Under the pieces are notes generated by a model. The model ran no database searches, was not told the origin of the DNA, and saw only the letters and a list, made by a program, of their open reading frames with translations. Below, in pieces: positions 21,806 through 56,626 of a stretch of DNA of 64,000 nt (position 1 is the first letter of the stretch; each line of letters opens with the position of its first letter). The DNA comes from Candidatus Uhrbacteria bacterium (lineage in GTDB: Bacteria; Patescibacteriota; Patescibacteriia; UBA9934). Where the stretch lies: the NCBI GenBank assembly GCA_943359525.1, contig CALRHV010000001.1, positions 7,181-71,180 on the forward strand, written 5' to 3'. The position numbers were made by a program, and so were the translations under genes.

Positions 21806-22330
21806 ATGATCTCGATCAACAAGCCAGCACCAAGCTTTGAAAACATCACGTCGTACACCAAGGGCGAGTTTACGAAAACAAGCCTCAGCTCGTACAAAGG
21901 AGGCTGGGTGGTGCTGTTCTTCTACCCTCGCGACTTCACCTTCATCTGTCCAACCGAAATTAAGGGCTTCCAAAAGCACGAAGCGGACTTTGCCGCCCTC
22001 AACGCAAAAGTCATCGGCGCATCCACAGACAGCGAATGGAGCCACAAAGCATGGTTTGAAAAGGATCTCCCTGAAGTGGCCTACCCTATCCTTGCCGACA
22101 CAACGCAAAAAGTTTCCCGCGACTACGGCGTGCTCAACGAAGACGACGGCAGTTCCGATCGCGGCTTGTTTATTATCGATCCAGAAGGTGTAGTGAAATA
22201 CGCCCTAGTCTCTGCCGGCTCCGTCGGCCGATCAGTCAAAGAAGTGCTCCGCGTTCTCACAGCACTTCAATCCGGCGAACTCTGCCCAATGGAATGGGAG
22301 CCGGGCGAGAAAACATTGGGAAAGGCGTAA
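21806..22330 (+). CDS. Typical 2-Cys peroxiredoxin (AhpC/Tsa family)
   Basis: FTFICPTE peroxidatic Cys motif and resolving Cys near C-terminus (GELCPMEW). Confidence 0.92.
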   Translation: MISINKPAPSFENITSYTKGEFTKTSLSSYKGGWVVLFFYPRDFTFICPTEIKGFQKHEADFAALNAKVIGASTDSEWSHKAWFEKDLPEVAYPILADTTQKVSRDYGVLNEDDGSSDRGLFIIDPEGVVKYALVSAGSVGRSVKEVLRVLTALQSGELCPMEWEPGEKTLGKA

Positions 22331-22344
22331 ACGTCACATATCAT

Positions 22345-22383
22345 CAGTAAAAAACTGGAGCCACAACAGGCTCCAGTTTTTTA
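22345..22383. terminator. Bidirectional Rho-independent terminator (prx / relE convergent)
   Basis: aaaaaactggagcc-acaaca-ggctccagtttttt. Confidence 0.8.
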
Positions 22384-22641
22384 CACCGACCGATAGATAT
22401 CGTGATCACCAACAGCAAGAAGGATTATTCCGTCAGTCGATCGTTCAAAAACAATTCTGGTTTTATAGTTTACCGAAAAACTCCACAAGTCATGAAGATT
22501 CCCTTTTAATTTATGTACTTTTAACGTGCTGTGATGTTCGGGGTTGCGAAACATCTCAACCTTCTCATAGACATCTTGTCGAAGATCTTCCGGCAAAGAA
22601 CTCGTCATTTTTATAAATTGCTTCGTAAACTGAATTCGCAT
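22381..22641 (-). CDS. Type II toxin, RelE/ParE superfamily
   Basis: 86 aa; …KVHKLKGNLHDLWSFSVNYKTRIVFERSTDGIILLAVGDHDIY… is the RelE/ParE fold signature. Confidence 0.8.
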   Translation of the reverse strand: MRIQFTKQFIKMTSSLPEDLRQDVYEKVEMFRNPEHHSTLKVHKLKGNLHDLWSFSVNYKTRIVFERSTDGIILLAVGDHDIYRSV

Positions 22642-22644
22642 ACG

Positions 22645-22866
22645 TTATGAAACCGCTTCAACGAGGGCCTTCAGATCTCCTTCGTAAAGCTCACCATTCC
22701 GGGCTTGTCGTTGCGAAATCAACACTGCGTTTAAAGCCTCTTCCTCAGAAAGCCGAATAATCGCTTTTCGCACAACTTCGGCTTTTGTTTCTGCAAAACC
22801 CATCTTTACCAAGCGCTCAATGATATTCTCCAGTGTTGGAGTAAGTGGTACAGAAAGTGTAGACAT
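22645..22866 (-). CDS. Type II antitoxin (RHH/ParD-like), cognate of downstream toxin
   Basis: 73 aa, gene immediately upstream of and 4 nt from toxin; N-terminal beta-strand plus helices. Confidence 0.65.
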   Translation of the reverse strand: MSTLSVPLTPTLENIIERLVKMGFAETKAEVVRKAIIRLSEEEALNAVLISQRQARNGELYEGDLKALVEAVS

Positions 22867-22965
22867 ATAGTAATGTTATGTCATCATATTACATTGCTAA
22901 CACGGTGAAGTCAAACGTGCTCCTCATTTACCTCATCTCCGCCGGCAGGGAGTGCCGATCGGTAA

Positions 22966-23060
22966 AGAAAGCGATGCGTGTACTGACGGCACTTCAATCC
23001 GGCGAACTCTGCCCAATGGAATGAGAACCAGGAGAGAAGACATTAGGAAAGGCGTAAACG
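22966..23060 (+). pseudogene. Diverged duplicate (about 85% identity) of the last about 95 nt of the peroxiredoxin gene, with its stop codon
   Basis: Direct repeat of 22239-22333; translates …VLTALQSGELCPME* vs native …VLRVLTALQSGELCPMEWEPGEKTLGKA*. Confidence 0.8.
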
Positions 23061-23073
23061 AAAACACGGTCAC

Positions 23074-23170
23074 CCCAATTGTTCAGGATGACCGTGCGAG
23101 TGGTCACCCCTATCTTTCGGGATGACGTTGTAAGTGTCACTCCTATTGCGTTGGAGTGACCGTGTTTGCT
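23074..23170. repeat. Array of three consecutive related hairpins (stems cacggtcacc/ggtgaccgtg-like)
   Basis: acacggtcacccc…ggatgaccgtg / gtggtcacccc…gggatgacg / gtgtcactcc…ggagtgaccgtgt; lies in the 3' region of gene 23179..23895. Confidence 0.6.
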
Positions 23171-32543: not shown

Positions 32544-33977
32544 CTAATAGCTCCGCGCAAACACAACGCGTTGATTCGATGGCTTTCCTGAGAATACGCA
32601 GGTTCCCGATGAGGAAGCCTCGGAGAATGGAATACAGCGGATCGTCGCGTTCGTTGCCTCCTTAATCTTCTTTTCATCGTCCGCATCGCCAGACCAATGT
32701 GCGGTCACAAACTTTCCAACCTCGATCGCGGTTACGAATTCGTCCCATGTAGAAACACCCACCGAGTTCGATTCACGGTGCGCGAGCGCACGATCGAAGA
32801 GATTCTTCTGGATCGTGACCATGAGATCGGAGACTATTGCTGCAGCATCGCCGATCGCCACACGAGACTTTTCACTGGTATCACGACGCGCAATGACAAC
32901 CTCGCCAGCCGCGATATCCTTCGGCCCGATCTCAACACGGACAGGAATCCCCTTCTTCTCCCAGTGAAAAATCTTCTCGCCAGGACGACCGTCGCGAGTA
33001 TCAATCTTGCCTCGAACGCCAGCAGCCTGGAGCTCGGCGAGCAATGCGTTCGCCTTTTCCATAACCGGTGCGCGCTCCTCGTCCTTGAACCACAATGGAA
33101 TAATGATCGCCTGAACCGATGCAACCTTCGGCGGAAGAACGAGACCCTGATCATCAGAGTGCGTCATGATCAGTCCACCGATCATGCGTGTTGAAACACC
33201 CCAGCTTGTCTGCCACGCAAGTTGTTCGACATTATTTTCGTCGCTAAATTTTACGTTGAATGCTTTTGCGAAATTCTGTCCAAGGTTGTGCGAGGTGCCG
33301 AATTGCAACGCTTTGCCGTCCTGCATCATCGCTTCGACACAATATGTGCGGAGCGCACCGGCAAATCGCTCGCTGTCAGACTTTTGCCCAGGGATCACCG
33401 GAACCGCCATCACGTTCTCGGCAAAGTCCACGTAGATATCGAGCATCTTTCGCGCAAACGCGTCAGCCTCGTCGTGGGTTGCGTGAACCGTGTGCCCTTC
33501 CTGCCACAAGAATTCTGTCGTCCGAAGGAACAAGCGCGTTCGCATCTCCCAGCGCACCACATTTGCCCACTGGTTGATGAGCAGAGGAAGATCGCGATAC
33601 GAATGGATCCAACCGCTGAACACTTCGTACATGATGGTTTCCGATGTTGGACGGACAACCAACGGTTCGTCGAGCTTCTTTCCGCCAGCATGTGTAACAA
33701 CAGCAACTTCTGGCGCGAATCCTTCGACGTGTTCAGCTTCACGACTCAAAAAACTCTGTGGAATAAATAATGGGAAATAGGCATTCTCAACGCCAATGGC
33801 TTTAAAGCGAGCATCAAGATCCTTTTGGATCATCTCCCAAATGGCATAGCCGTGCGGCTTAATAATCATGCAGCCCTTCACCGGCGAATGCTCGGCCATG
33901 TCTGCGGCAGAGATCACGTCGAGGTACCACTGGCTGTAATCTTCAGCACGAGGAGTGATGCGAGTATTGGAAGCCAT
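32544..33977 (-). CDS. proS: Proline--tRNA ligase, archaeal/eukaryotic-type (class IIa, no editing insertion)
   Basis: 477 aa, class II motifs (…FRTTEFLWQEGHT…, GGLIMTHSDD), C-terminal Zn-binding-like domain …NATIRCIPFSEASSSGTCVFSG…. Confidence 0.9.
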   Translation of the reverse strand: MASNTRITPRAEDYSQWYLDVISAADMAEHSPVKGCMIIKPHGYAIWEMIQKDLDARFKAIGVENAYFPLFIPQSFLSREAEHVEGFAPEVAVVTHAGGKKLDEPLVVRPTSETIMYEVFSGWIHSYRDLPLLINQWANVVRWEMRTRLFLRTTEFLWQEGHTVHATHDEADAFARKMLDIYVDFAENVMAVPVIPGQKSDSERFAGALRTYCVEAMMQDGKALQFGTSHNLGQNFAKAFNVKFSDENNVEQLAWQTSWGVSTRMIGGLIMTHSDDQGLVLPPKVASVQAIIIPLWFKDEERAPVMEKANALLAELQAAGVRGKIDTRDGRPGEKIFHWEKKGIPVRVEIGPKDIAAGEVVIARRDTSEKSRVAIGDAAAIVSDLMVTIQKNLFDRALAHRESNSVGVSTWDEFVTAIEVGKFVTAHWSGDADDEKKIKEATNATIRCIPFSEASSSGTCVFSGKPSNQRVVFARSY

Positions 33978-33999
33978 AAAAAAGAAGGAAAGAATGCCA

Positions 34000-34900
34000 C
34001 GATGGTACCGGAAAACAAAAAACTCTCCAAATGGAGAGAATGATAAAGCCCCATGAGCATTCCGATTTTCACGTCGGCGATCTCATGGGGCATCGTTTGG
34101 TTCACGTGTCACTCGTTGGCCGAAACTGTTTTTTTAGGTTGGGGCCGGTCGTTGTCGGGAAGAAACTCCCCTTAGGCGACCGGCCTTGCCCCAGTGGAGA
34201 TGTTCGCGTCGGCCGACGCTACTTATCTTTGATGCTCCGTTTGCACCCCACACGTTTCTGCCCCGGTTGGAGCGTCCACTTTGTTCAATCCTGCTTGCAA
34301 GGCTAGGACTAAACCGGATGCTCTGCACTCCTCACTCATGTTGACCTCCCGGCCAATGAATGGCTACAGAACTTGGGGAGGGCTTTCTCTGCCGGTATGG
34401 TTTGCGGCCACCCACTGCAAAGTCTTCTCCTCGCCATTGATGAATCTACCGATGGGAAGCAATCTTTTCAGATTACGCCATCGTGTAGTGTCGTTCACCA
34501 ACTTCCAGGCGACAACCTGGGCGGTGATCGGACTATTGGTCCGTCACCTTTCGCGCCGATGGTCCTCAGGCGGACCCACAGGAGCCCAATGGCCCCCACA
34601 CGCCCATTGGCACGTGCAATCCTCATCCCCTTGCGAGGGACTCGCCTGACCGGGATGAGACCCGGCATGAAAAGGCGTGGCCCATCGGGCCGGAGGAGCT
34701 TATTGCTGTTGAAGGTCGATGCTGCTGTCGCATCGCTATGTGACCATCGCCGCGGGGCTCAGGTACGAGAACTAGCATACCACATTTTCCCACTTTGGTC
34801 AAGTGGATTAGCGTATAAAACACAAGAATATCCTTTAAATAGGCACTTTTTGTCTTCTCCGCTCTCTCTCAATCATCCTCGCGTAAGCGGAGATCCAGCG
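34000..34900. other. About 0.9-kb GC-rich (about 58%) region with no ORFs and many hairpins; candidate structured non-coding RNA locus or decayed foreign DNA (identity unresolved)
   Basis: No convincing ORF in six frames. Multiple perfect hairpins (ggggccggtcg…cgaccggcc..cccc; gcgtcggccgacgc; ggcccatcgggcc; ccgggatgagacccgg). It lies between the divergent genes proS and msrB. Confidence 0.3.
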
Positions 34901-35003
34901 TGTTTCTAAGACTACTCAGAACAGTGAATCGATTTCCATGTATCATCGATGCAGCGACAGAATCCGCAAAAATTCTTATCTACAAGTGTCGCAAAATACA
35001 TCT

Positions 35004-35384
35004 ATGATCGAACAACTCAATCCCAATCTCTCAGAAGAACAAAAGAACGTCTGTTTTTTGAAAGGAACCGAGGCGCCGTTTAGTGGAAAGTATTACAAAA
35101 CCACGGATTCTGGGATGTACGTTTGCGCCAATTGTGGCCATGAATTGTTCGGATCGGACACAAAATTTGACTCTGGAACGGGTTGGCCAAGCTTTTGGGA
35201 TACTGCAAATTCGGAGAATGTTGCGACGGAGACGGACCGCGAGCTCGGCATGGCACGAACCGAAATTCTCTGCGCGAACTGTCGTGCACACCTTGGCCAC
35301 GTGTTCCCCGATGGGCCGAAACCGACCGGAAAACGATATTGTGTGAATTCGCTGTCGCTGGATTTTCAGCCGAAGCAGAGTTGA
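35004..35384 (+). CDS. msrB: Peptide-methionine (R)-S-oxide reductase MsrB
   Basis: Two CxxC pairs (CANCGHELF…, CANCRAHLGHVF) and GWPSF catalytic region. Confidence 0.9.
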   Translation: MIEQLNPNLSEEQKNVCFLKGTEAPFSGKYYKTTDSGMYVCANCGHELFGSDTKFDSGTGWPSFWDTANSENVATETDRELGMARTEILCANCRAHLGHVFPDGPKPTGKRYCVNSLSLDFQPKQS

Positions 35385-35569
35385 GCCGACCGAGCGTAGC
35401 GAGCGATTCAACGAGTGGCACCGAGGACATCACAAGCGCCAGTGGCGAGGATACATTCTTCCAACGAGCACGCGCCCCTCAGCTGCAGTCGAGTGTAAAC
35501 GAGACGTCGCAGCGTAGGGGATTCGCGCGGAGTGCAGAAGAATGTATCCGAGCCACCAGCTTGCGATGA

Positions 35570-37381
35570 TTATTTCGCCGCTTTCAACATCTCAATCTCT
35601 TCACACAACACAAGCCATTGATGCTCGAATCGGCTGAGTTCGTCGTCGAGTTCGGAAAGGCGACGATTCTTTTCTGGCGAGTAATCTGTTGGGTTCTCGA
35701 AAAAGTACGCGAGGATTCCACTTTTTTCTTTGTCGAGCTTTTCAATCTGCAGTTGCATCCGTTCTGCGAGGCGTTGTTTTTCTTTGAGGAGTTGTCGGCG
35801 AAGCGATCGTGTTTCTGCGTCGTCAGACATTTCCTTCGGCAACACCGCGACATCATCAGCATCCATGATCGATTCGAGATCGCGAACATAATCCTCGTAC
35901 GTTCCAACGTAGTGACGCAACGTTCCTCCTCGAATCTCGTAGATCCGATCGGCAAGAGCATTCACGAAGGTTCGTGCGTGAGAAACGAAGAGCACCGTTC
36001 CGCCGCATTCCTTCAGCGCCGATGCGAGCGATTCTGCAGTCTCGACGTCCAGGTGGTTTGTTGGTTCGTCGAGGATGAGTACGCTGTGTTCGTGCAGCAG
36101 CATTCCCGCCAAACACAAACGGGCACGCTCTCCCCCAGAAAGCACACTCGTCGTTTTTTCCAAGTCGTCACCACGGAACAGGAAGTTCCCCGCCATCATC
36201 AAAATGCGCTCCCCCGATGCCATTGCCGGTGAAAGGCGCGTAAGGTACTGCAGGATAGTCTCCGATGGGACCAATGTCGCATCCGTCTTCTGGTCGTAAT
36301 ACCCAATGTCGGCGCGATGCCACCATTTTACGCTTCCCTCGAGAGGCTCGAGAATTCCCGCGAGCGTTTTCAGTAACGTCGATTTTCCTTTTCCGTTCTC
36401 CCCAGCAATAACTACCTTTTCTCCGCGATTGAACGTAAACGAGATGTTCGAGGCAATAACTACGGGAGATCCTTCACTCCGTTCAGGATGACTGAAATAT
36501 CCAATCGACAGCTTCTCTACACGAACAGCGATGCCCGGAATAATCACCGGCGTGGGAATGACGATGCGCGTGGTCGACAGGTCTTTTTTAATCTGCACGA
36601 TCGATCGTCGGAGTTTCTCGATATGCTTGATCTTACTCTGTGCTCGCGACGCCTGGCTCGCCTTGTACTGAAACCGATTCACAAATTCCTGGTGATGCGC
36701 CATCTCTCTGGCAACACGCTTATTACTCTTCCGAAGAAACTCCAATTGCTCTGCCTTCCATACAAGATAATCCTCAACAGTTCCCGGGTACGCCGTCATC
36801 GCCGCGCGCTCAATCTCCATGGTGGAAGTACAGGTGTTCTGAAGAAATTCGCGATCGTGCGCAGTCATGATAAAGCTCCCCTCGTAATCAGCGAGGAAAC
36901 GTTCGAGCAAAAGCAACGTCGGCAGATCGAGATAGTTCACTGGTTCGTCGAGGAGAAGCAAATTCGGATCGCACAACAACATTGCAACAATCTTTACGCG
37001 CATTTGGTAACCCCCCGATAGTGCAGTTGGCGGCTTCTCAAGATCGGTGCCATGCAATCCAAACTTCGCGGCAAGCTTGCGGACGTCCCACGTCGGCTTC
37101 CCCGAGATCGATGAGCAGTATTCTTCGGTGGTGACGTCGCCGGGAAGAATGTCGTGTTGCGCAACCATGCCGAGCTTCGTCCATGGCATGAGTTTTACTG
37201 TTCCAGCATCGGGCTCCTCGATTCCCATGAGCATATTCAACAGCGTCGACTTCCCGGCACCGTTGCGGCCGATCAACGCGATATGCTCACCTTCACCCAC
37301 CACAAATCCAATATCGTCACAGACAATTTGCTTGCCGTACGATTTCCGTAAACCTTTTACATCGAGGAGTGGTCGAGACAT
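35570..37381 (-). CDS. ABC-F family ATPase (tandem ABC domains, C-terminal coiled coil; Uup/EttA-like)
   Basis: Two Walker A sites (GRNGAGKST, GENGKGKST), two LSGG signatures, no TM domain. Confidence 0.88.
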   Translation of the reverse strand: MSRPLLDVKGLRKSYGKQIVCDDIGFVVGEGEHIALIGRNGAGKSTLLNMLMGIEEPDAGTVKLMPWTKLGMVAQHDILPGDVTTEEYCSSISGKPTWDVRKLAAKFGLHGTDLEKPPTALSGGYQMRVKIVAMLLCDPNLLLLDEPVNYLDLPTLLLLERFLADYEGSFIMTAHDREFLQNTCTSTMEIERAAMTAYPGTVEDYLVWKAEQLEFLRKSNKRVAREMAHHQEFVNRFQYKASQASRAQSKIKHIEKLRRSIVQIKKDLSTTRIVIPTPVIIPGIAVRVEKLSIGYFSHPERSEGSPVVIASNISFTFNRGEKVVIAGENGKGKSTLLKTLAGILEPLEGSVKWWHRADIGYYDQKTDATLVPSETILQYLTRLSPAMASGERILMMAGNFLFRGDDLEKTTSVLSGGERARLCLAGMLLHEHSVLILDEPTNHLDVETAESLASALKECGGTVLFVSHARTFVNALADRIYEIRGGTLRHYVGTYEDYVRDLESIMDADDVAVLPKEMSDDAETRSLRRQLLKEKQRLAERMQLQIEKLDKEKSGILAYFFENPTDYSPEKNRRLSELDDELSRFEHQWLVLCEEIEMLKAAK

Positions 37382-56551: not shown

Positions 56552-56626
56552 TGGCTCCGGGGGTGGGGATCGAACCCACGACCTGAGGATTAACAGTCCT
56601 TCGCTCTGCCGCTGAGCTACCCCGGA
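56552..56626 (-). tRNA. tRNA-Asn (anticodon GTT), CCA encoded (coordinates approximate within 2 nt)
   Basis: Own fold: acceptor TCCGGGG/CCCCGGA, D-arm GCTC…GAGC, anticodon loop CTGTTAA, T-arm GTGGG-TTCGATC-CCCAC, discriminator G, CCA. Confidence 0.85.

Follow-up and report, generated by a model that had tools for sequence, protein, structure and literature searches.

In a 64-kb stretch of DNA (64,000 nucleotides of contig CALRHV010000001.1, hereafter the window) from a groundwater bacterium of the Candidate Phyla Radiation (CPR, or Patescibacteria), the gap of 1026 bp between the divergent genes proS and msrB is probably occupied by a stand-alone gene on the minus strand, encoding a trans-acting, structured non-coding RNA (ncRNA) of approximately 755 nt that belongs to an undescribed family, found so far only at this locus in a narrow, Uhrbacteria-like clade. 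The interval has the anatomy of a gene and a definite strand, is without coding potential, contains helices that are kept by compensatory changes, and is constrained among copies of the same type. We rate the family as new; it is represented by 11 copies (10 distinct sequences) from one clade, with a structure that is partly resolved and a transcript that is predicted; 'proS-upstream CPR RNA' serves as a working name. A first-pass annotation, made by reading the sequence without database searches, had singled out the gap as rich in hairpins and listed a large structured ncRNA, a degraded foreign gene and a regulatory hub as candidates. The first of these is supported, in the form of a novel RNA, by a promoter, a recurrent 5' end, a terminator, covarying hairpins, homologues at the same locus and the lack of any Rfam match; the strand, which had not been given, is minus.

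To our knowledge, very few bacterial ncRNAs longer than 500 nt are known, and each of them (RNase P, OLE, GOLLD, ROOL) opened new biology; we found no description in the literature of a large ncRNA from CPR or Patescibacteria. CPR genomes are compact, and in a tiny genome a non-coding gene of 0.8-1 kb is costly, so the RNA probably serves a purpose. On a more speculative reading, with discrete types diversifying at one fixed locus, the family would constitute a new class of large bacterial ncRNA with a pattern unlike that of housekeeping RNAs. Two of its traits are unusual for structured RNAs, namely a scaffold of short modules bearing type-specific arms and a bimodal divergence at constant divergence of the flanks, and both together make it a tractable case for how large RNAs evolve.

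Coding potential and transcription signals of the proS-msrB interval

The gap is the longest stretch of the window without any gene. Intergenic distances are typically 0-300 nt, rather wider than the few nucleotides of the first-pass description, which was correct in finding no credible open reading frame (ORF) here. On the plus strand, mechanically called ORFs measure 178, 122 and 91 aa, those of the minus strand 45-66 aa; seven ORFs of the gap had no Pfam match at E<=1, and the 178-aa ORF, compared with 5.8 billion proteins, matched its own public gene call alone. No reading frame was kept in a six-frame comparison of four homologous regions, tblastn with the genes that fill the interval at one homologous locus (g220, g190, g131 and ahpC of L081; L numbers denote such loci) found no remnant in the window gap, and phage and plasmid records held nothing similar to the gap sequence. 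The suggestion of a degraded foreign gene is contradicted by each of these searches. Exact-pattern scans of viral contigs, with a CRISPR-like motif described below and with patterns of the promoter plus 5' end, gave 0 matches.

Public records place hypothetical proteins over the RNA gene at four loci, that is, in the window (34373-34909, plus strand, 170 aa), L081 (2050-2622, 190 aa), L214 (2342-2623, 93 aa) and L216 (1259-1486, 75 aa). The 170-aa call has no Pfam match, its sole counterpart in the protein database is its own entry, and homologues do not keep it; the other three are without Pfam annotation. All four are probably spurious, a practical point for users of public annotations, which now put such proteins onto the RNA gene. 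The GC content of the RNA, 0.564, exceeds that of the window (0.508), of proS (0.529) and of msrB (0.499). This excess of 4-6 points is modest; 3.4% of windows of the same size reach the same value. The first-pass remark that GC was clearly higher is correct in direction only; an excess is seen in all homologues (+1 to +9 points, and +5 to +9 except in L089).

The promoter of the RNA gene (34802-34774) is of the sigma-70 type, close to consensus and equipped with an extended -10 element; it was found by scan in the window, in L001, in L081 and twice in L217, and was matched by pattern in all 11 copies. Its conserved flanks, CTTGACNAAAG...TGNTANNCT, are present in every homologue, and CTTGACNAAAG...TGNTATNCT at <=2 mismatches has a single match in the window, which is the RNA promoter. 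A metagenome scan with CTTGACNAAAG...TGNTATNCT returned generic strong promoters, none with the RNA 5' end among the matches listed. The 5' end (A/C)GUUYUCGUACCU, i.e. (A/C)GTTYTCGTACCT, follows the promoter in every copy, and the predicted transcript starts at the conserved CGUACCU. At the opposite end, the terminator scan identified CTCTCCATTTGGAGAG and a T-run (hairpin 34038-34023) approximately 35 nt ahead of the proS ATG. The terminator at the RNA end was flagged by the scan in the window, L217A and L081, and in the remaining copies a stem and T-run were read by eye, such that a terminator is present at each copy's end; its sequence is not conserved. From promoter to terminator, the copies measure 763 (window), 933, 796, 883, 838, 859, 909, 1016, 274 and 349 nt.

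Past the terminator, the box TTTTCCGGTACCATCG is kept in the window, L001, L086, L211, L212, L216 and L217B, with TACCAT placed 17 nt after TTGNNN, and TACCAT also precedes proS in L002 and L210, both of which are without the RNA at that place. The box is probably the promoter of proS itself. Pairing of the 5' GUACC with this downstream GGUACC box, as a helix closing the RNA, was considered and rejected: there is no covariation (L001 has GUAACC with the box unchanged), and the box is better explained as the proS promoter. On the other side, an 88-nt island conserved with L001 covers a TATAAA that is likely to be the -10 element of msrB. Three promoters (for msrB, the RNA and proS) lie in the interval, which makes it a regulatory hub in a trivial sense; most of its length is the RNA gene. 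The coordinates of these and other features are given in Table 1.

Table 1. Coordinates, in window positions, of the features of the proS-msrB interval and its flanking genes.
Feature	Position	Strand	Basis or detail
proS	32544-33977	minus	divergent from msrB
Candidate proS promoter: TTGGAG (34030-34025), 17 nt, TACCAT (34007-34002)	34002..34030	minus	inside conserved box TTTTCCGGTACCATCG
Intrinsic terminator CUCUCC-AUUU-GGAGAG then UUUUUUGUUUU	34013..34038	minus	terminator scan
Predicted transcript, ~755 nt	34013..34767	minus	5' end from promoter spacing; 3' end in U-tract past terminator
3' hairpin, 10-bp perfect stem GCCCCAUGAG / CUCAUGGGGC	34048..34091	minus	inverted repeat; in minimum free energy (MFE) structure
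Hairpin A3 GGCCGGUCG...CGACCGGCC	34133..34175	minus	in MFE structure
Hairpin A2 GGUGC-AAACGGA-GCAUC	34231..34247	minus	18-nt island conserved with L001
Long-range helix Px: GUUGGUGAA (34502-34494) with UUCAUCAAU (34444-34436)	34436..34502	minus	covariance model R1 and alignment
Hairpin A1 CCAGG-UUGUCG-CCUGG, conserved UUGUC loop	34505..34520	minus	helix comparison; start of covariance-model match
5' domain: P1 (GUACC / GGUcAC) around hairpin P1a (GCC-CCGC-GGC, 34758-34749)	34740..34766	minus	helix comparison
Extended -10 element TGgTATGCT	34774..34782	minus	promoter scan and pattern match
-35 hexamer TTGACC of RNA promoter	34797..34802	minus	promoter scan: TTGACC-17-TATGCT with TG
TATAAA, likely -10 of divergent msrB promoter	34814..34819	plus	inside conserved block TATAAAACACAAGAA
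msrB	ATG 35004	plus	Pfam SelR match

Two sets of inverted repeats accompany these promoters. One, CCACTT-GACCA-AAGTGG, overlaps the -35 of the RNA promoter (window 34791-34807; L001:3008-3028; L081:1813-1831) and is kept by compensatory changes (CCGCTT/AAGCGG, CTGCTT/AAGCAG; TTGAC-GAAA-GTCAA in L211 and L217); a dimeric regulator could use this repeat as its operator. The other, AACTAAGTTAGT...ACTAACTTAGTT, is present in two or three copies in several relatives, past the TACCAT box and before the start of proS (L211:2935-3000, L216:2090-2145, L217:2130-2200, L088:140-190), the window being without it, and may represent operator sites for proS regulation.

Homologues, conserved helices and proposed discrete types

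The window organism is placed in Patescibacteria by its ProS, which is 95% identical to that of the metagenome-assembled genome (MAG) H41-bin182_1 and 84% identical to that of a Candidatus Uhrbacteria MAG. Among 80 species-level genomic loci from a ProS scan, BLAST and motif search matched the gap in L001 only, where the msrB-gap-proS arrangement is the same. Further copies were obtained from contigs encoding close ProS relatives, i.e. L086 (= L087), L081, L089, L211, L212 (= L213), L214 (= L001), L216 and L217; contig P0125 covered only 94 nt upstream. The family comprises the window copy and 10 further copies (nine distinct) of 274-1016 nt, all at the proS locus of related Uhrbacteria-like MAGs, and the RNA is kept in every sampled member of the clade. 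The features by which we propose to define it, namely the promoter TTGACNAAAG-N-TGNTANNCT, the 5' YGUA(A)CC, a hairpin with, in most cases, a GNRA cap, and an intrinsic terminator, are present in the window and the 10 other copies. The window also has the arrangement of the long form, with A1 (UUGUC loop), Px and A2 (RAMYGGA loop) collinear.

The RNA is co-directional with, and immediately upstream of, proS in nine of the 11 copies. In L217 (218-2115), proS is preceded by a tandem of two complete RNA genes that differ in type, and both units have an upstream TTGATTTYATT motif, promoter, 5' domain and terminator. L081 (1-4000) has the order msrA-msrB-(220-aa ORF)-RNA-(131-aa ORF)-terminator-ahpC-proS; with an ORF, a terminator and ahpC between RNA and proS, this order indicates that the RNA is a gene of its own rather than a leader of proS.

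The hairpin density remarked upon at first pass exceeds that expected by chance. MFE z-scores of region 34040-34800 against dinucleotide shuffles are -4.1 for the plus strand and -5.6 for the minus strand; for the sense strand of four long homologues they are -6.1 (the window RNA as defined here), -6.7, -3.1 and -8.5, and for the short forms -5.4 (L089) and -4.2 (L211). The sense strand, co-directional with proS, is more stable than its complement by 20-50 kcal/mol in 4/4 homologues (20 in the window), alifold z for the pair L086/L217A is -6.0 in sense versus -3.8 in antisense, and the G-U wobbles of P1a and A2 fit the minus strand, those of P1a only that strand. The unconstrained MFE structure of the window RNA contains 38 of the 50 bp assigned to the listed helices.

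Comparison of individual helices gives a clearer picture. Short hairpin alignments were misregistered by MAFFT; helix pair counts were done by script. P1a is present and fully paired in 10/10 RNAs, with a GNRA loop in 8/10 and C-G, U-A or G-C as its second pair. A1 has six stem sequences across 8 RNAs, all paired, at position ~170-300. Directly after A1 comes Px, enclosing a variable hairpin arm, and two of its pairs, as read by eye in an alignment, change on both sides between types (G-C to A-U, A-U to C-G). A2 is found in 8 RNAs, collinear at position ~520-560 (330 in L212), with U-A or C-G at pair 3 and G-U, G-C or C-G at pair 4. Each of P1a, A1 and A2 thus pairs completely in 8-10 RNAs, and a given position shows 2-4 kinds of base pair. 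Among the stem-loops listed at first pass, GGCCGGTCG...CGACCGGCC is real and coincides with A3 (34133-34175), its arm CGACCGGCC recurring, as read by eye, at the matching place in L001 and L212; the others exist, and for them no conservation could be shown.

To A1 and Px together we fitted a covariance model, R1, built from L001, L216, L086 and L217A only, with the window left out. Over both strands of the window (125 kb searched) R1 had one match, at 34431-34520 on the minus strand, of full length (26.9 bits, E = 0.0011), and this is an independent test that the interior of the window copy belongs to the family, on the minus strand. On L081, L212 and L217B, R1 had no match at E<=10, and the family definition is still loose. 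Covariation was also scored by transferring the single-sequence MFE structure to a partner sequence and assessing double substitutions for pairing: between L086 and L217A, pairing was kept in 13/18 and 10/12 double substitutions (p = 0.005, 0.002). Compensatory changes are evident among relatives in P1a, A1, A2 and Px, and the global signal is weak; anchored MAFFT alignment of 7 RNAs with RNAalifold gave almost no consensus structure.

Strains that share ~95% ProS identity have RNA interiors that for the most part cannot be aligned. Although every pair of such strains has a proS third-codon identity of 0.50-0.57, their RNA identity is bimodal, being 0.73 for L001/L216 and 0.77 for L086/L217A, and 0.39-0.52 (mostly 0.42-0.47, essentially noise) between types at the same proS divergence. 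Identity within types that exceeds that of proS third positions indicates purifying selection, and the bimodality suggests discrete paralogous types under such selection, between which only the modules survive. The simplest reading of these sequence comparisons is that the types are old paralogues, subject to differential retention and module exchange. L001 and L216 show complete divergence in their 3' third. L211 is without ~560 central nt, which in L212 have flanking AT(T/C)GAAAC direct repeats, and the existence of short forms (L211, L089) means that central domains can be lost.

Two observations concern the gene neighbourhood. In L081 the RNA sits among oxidative-damage repair genes; the AhpC gene of the window is 12 kb away instead. 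A second gap of 0.8 kb in the window (22330-23134) is occupied by a small toxin-antitoxin pair (HigB-like toxin and antitoxin; 22381-22866, minus) between that AhpC-family gene (21806-22330) and the next gene. The 86-aa toxin resembles HigB only weakly in Pfam, with 20.8 bits where the cut-off is 27; the partner protein has 73 aa. The last ~80 nt of the AhpC gene (22250-22330) are duplicated beyond the pair, at ~22975-23055, as if it had been inserted with target duplication.

Proposed role and rival explanations

Searches against known RNA families were negative, as the by-eye comparison with RNase P, tmRNA and SRP RNA had been at first pass. Rfam 15 (4227 models), applied to the whole window at gathering thresholds, identified only a tRNA at 56555-56626, and cmscan of 33900-35050 at E<=10 with permissive filters gave 0 matches; at E<=10 five homologous loci gave nothing relevant, save sub-threshold CRISPR-DR10 in two. 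ARAGORN found 0 tmRNA genes in 33000-36000, and tmRNA, without an Rfam match either, was rejected. RNaseP_bact_a/b had no match in the window region, and the T-box model RF00230 had none in 6 loci at E<=10. A T-box leader was also set aside on other grounds, as the terminator flanks are not conserved and, in L081 and L217A, the RNA is no longer linked to proS in cis.

Hallmarks of the RNase P P4 helix are CR-I, GAGGAAAGUCC, and CR-V, ACAGAA...CGGCUUA. The word GGCUACAGAAC / GGCTACAGAAC, which the first-pass annotation had likened to P4, does not withstand scrutiny: it lies on the plus strand and the gene on the minus, the aligned position in L001, the closest homologue, reads GGTGGCTGAGGAG, and there is no Rfam match. 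In L086, GAAAGGUGAAC...GGUAAACCC recalls what we take to be the J11/12 region of RNase P; it is not conserved and has no Rfam support. Other resemblances by eye, to RNase P, SRP, T-box or 6S RNA (e.g. CCGGAAGG..AGCAG in L211, GGUAAACCC in L086), were likewise neither conserved nor Rfam-supported.

A CRISPR- or TIGR-type array was rejected as well: TRF found 0 arrays at score >= 30, and the repeat search found only 2-copy families of 10-15 nt. Two members do carry a CRISPR-repeat-like hairpin, GCYCCGCUACA(A)GAGGRGAUUGAARC, at different positions in the RNA (L212:2049-2085 and L089:389-426). Against CRISPR-DR10, whose gathering score is 39, the hairpin of L212 falls just short with 35.4 bits (E = 5.5e-5) and that of L089 reaches 18.9 bits; the stems differ by an exchange of C-G for U-A. 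Neither the window copy nor most of the others have the hairpin with its AUUGAARC motif, no cas genes were seen in the window or the homologous loci, and the idea of a solitary CRISPR repeat fits L212 and L089 only.

We propose the following model. Transcription would proceed on the minus strand from the sigma-70-type, extended -10 promoter, from ~34767 to 34013, and would stop at the intrinsic terminator ~35 nt before the proS start codon, proS then being transcribed, probably, from its own promoter. The RNA would be modular, consisting of a 5' helix with a GNRA hairpin, a UUGUC-loop hairpin with a long-range helix behind it, a hairpin with an AACGGA loop, a long GC-rich hairpin and the terminator, the modules being separated by arms that are wholly different between types. 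The types would behave as old paralogues, with two in tandem in one genome and different genomes keeping different ones. As a stable structural RNA the transcript would act in trans, as scaffold of a ribonucleoprotein (RNP) or of an RNA-only assembly, rather than regulate proS in cis; this is our best inference of its role. Length, copy number and type all vary, which suggests that the role is accessory rather than core. More speculatively, Uhrbacteria-like CPR, with ~1-Mb genomes, might keep a lineage-specific family of 0.3-1.0-kb RNAs, whose types diversify at a single locus as copies are duplicated, modules swapped and members differentially lost, in a pattern like that of conflict or recognition systems; this would be a new large-ncRNA class, maybe an RNA-only assembly or RNP scaffold with strain-specific surfaces, some members having a CRISPR-repeat-like processing hairpin.

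Several points weigh against a trans-acting structural RNA. Transcription, ends and abundance are all inferred, the data identify no partner protein or target, and the constant position beside proS keeps a cis role possible. The sample is 11 copies (10 distinct) from one narrow clade. Covariation is weak globally; for L001/L216 neither the alifold z of only -2.2 nor the structure-transfer test is significant. Many one-sided changes break pairs predicted by MFE, so that a large part of the MFE structure is either incorrect or not under constraint; the supported helices span ~100 of 755 nt. In addition, L211 is without the whole central region and L089 is short too, implying that the long form is dispensable or redundant.

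The main rival is cis-regulation of proS by a long leader or attenuator, with an upstream promoter and regulated read-through of the terminator, T-box-like or protein-mediated. Genes for aminoacyl-tRNA synthetases (aaRS) are classic targets of leader RNAs, and the position of the RNA, upstream of proS in most copies and ending only ~35 nt before the ATG, fits this explanation; we nonetheless regard it as unlikely. Neither a T-box nor another leader matched at E<=10, no conserved antiterminator-like sequence accompanies the terminators, whose sequences are wholly different, and no known leader looks like this RNA with its 0.3-1.0 kb of type-variable sequence. The RNA is parted from proS in L081 by an ORF, a terminator and ahpC, the upstream copy in L217 is followed by another RNA gene, and the probable proS promoter (TACCAT box) lies downstream of the terminator and is found also in clades without the RNA. 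We consider it quite improbable, too, that the interval amounts to a transcribed spacer without function or under weak constraint, such as a small, decaying mobile or duplicated element of which a promoter, ends and a few hairpins are left. Such a spacer would account for interiors that are unalignable at 95% ProS identity, for large indels such as the ~560 nt lost by L211 between what are direct repeats in L212, for variable copy number and for the covariation test that was not significant for one pair. It sits poorly with retention of the RNA in every sampled clade member despite compact CPR genomes, with identity of 73-77% within types versus 50-57% at synonymous-like sites, with folding z of -3 to -8.5 in independent copies, with collinear motifs that show compensatory changes and with recovery of the window copy by the covariance model; there is no similarity to phages or plasmids, and viral contigs are without the family motifs.

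That the RNA is a known housekeeping RNA (RNase P RNA, tmRNA, SRP RNA, 6S) or a riboswitch too divergent for the Rfam models is very unlikely. CPR RNAs can be atypical, and there are the RNase P-like word of the first pass and the likeness of a segment of L086 to J11/12; these suggestive words are not conserved between homologues, cmscan at E<=10 gave nothing here or at the five homologous loci, and ARAGORN found no tmRNA. A housekeeping RNA, moreover, would not have a length anywhere between 274 and 1016 nt, shed its centre, form tandem duplicates or defy alignment at 95% ProS identity, and the RNA ends at an intrinsic terminator and not at a processed CCA end. A degraded protein gene, possibly foreign, had in its favour the mechanical plus-strand ORFs of 178 and 122 aa, one of them called a hypothetical protein in the public record; with no Pfam match for 7 ORFs at E<=1, no homologue among 5.8 billion proteins beyond its own gene call, no conserved frame, no tblastn match to the genes of the L081 interval, and conservation of hairpins rather than codons, this reading is effectively refuted.

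Comparison with known systems

Set beside CRISPR repeats (CRISPR-DR10), the family shares the hairpin and AUUGAARC motif in two members (L212, L089), and differs in that the motif is missing from the window and most copies, repeat-spacer periodicity is lacking and no cas genes were seen. RNase P RNA (type A/B) is likewise structured and GC-rich with a variable periphery, and the P4-like word had invited the comparison; the window family, by contrast, is hypervariable and partly deletable, its P4 (CR-I/CR-V) is not conserved, the word is on the wrong strand, and there is no Rfam match at E<=10.

T-box leaders have a Stem I with specifier loop, a T-box sequence and mutually exclusive terminator and antiterminator, and always act in cis. 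With these and other aaRS leaders the RNA has in common its place directly upstream of an aaRS gene, its co-directional orientation and its intrinsic terminator. Unlike them, it has no T-box sequence, specifier, antiterminator architecture or Rfam match, is three to four times longer, stands apart from proS in L081 and is duplicated in L217, and proS seems to have a promoter of its own.

OLE, GOLLD and ROOL, large ornate bacterial ncRNAs that are Rfam families and have been studied by cryo-EM (PMC12286853), resemble the RNA in little more than size class and the status of structured orphan RNAs. The window RNA matches none of them in sequence or structure, and its family is far less conserved, with few short modules in common between types and a four-fold variation in length; it belongs to one CPR clade and one chromosomal locus, and is not in prophages or near tRNAs. 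Like them, it falls within the 0.6-0.8 kb size class, is encoded by a stand-alone gene, has many helices with GNRA-type loops, exceeds its surroundings in GC content and folding, and comes, as they did at discovery, with no known function.

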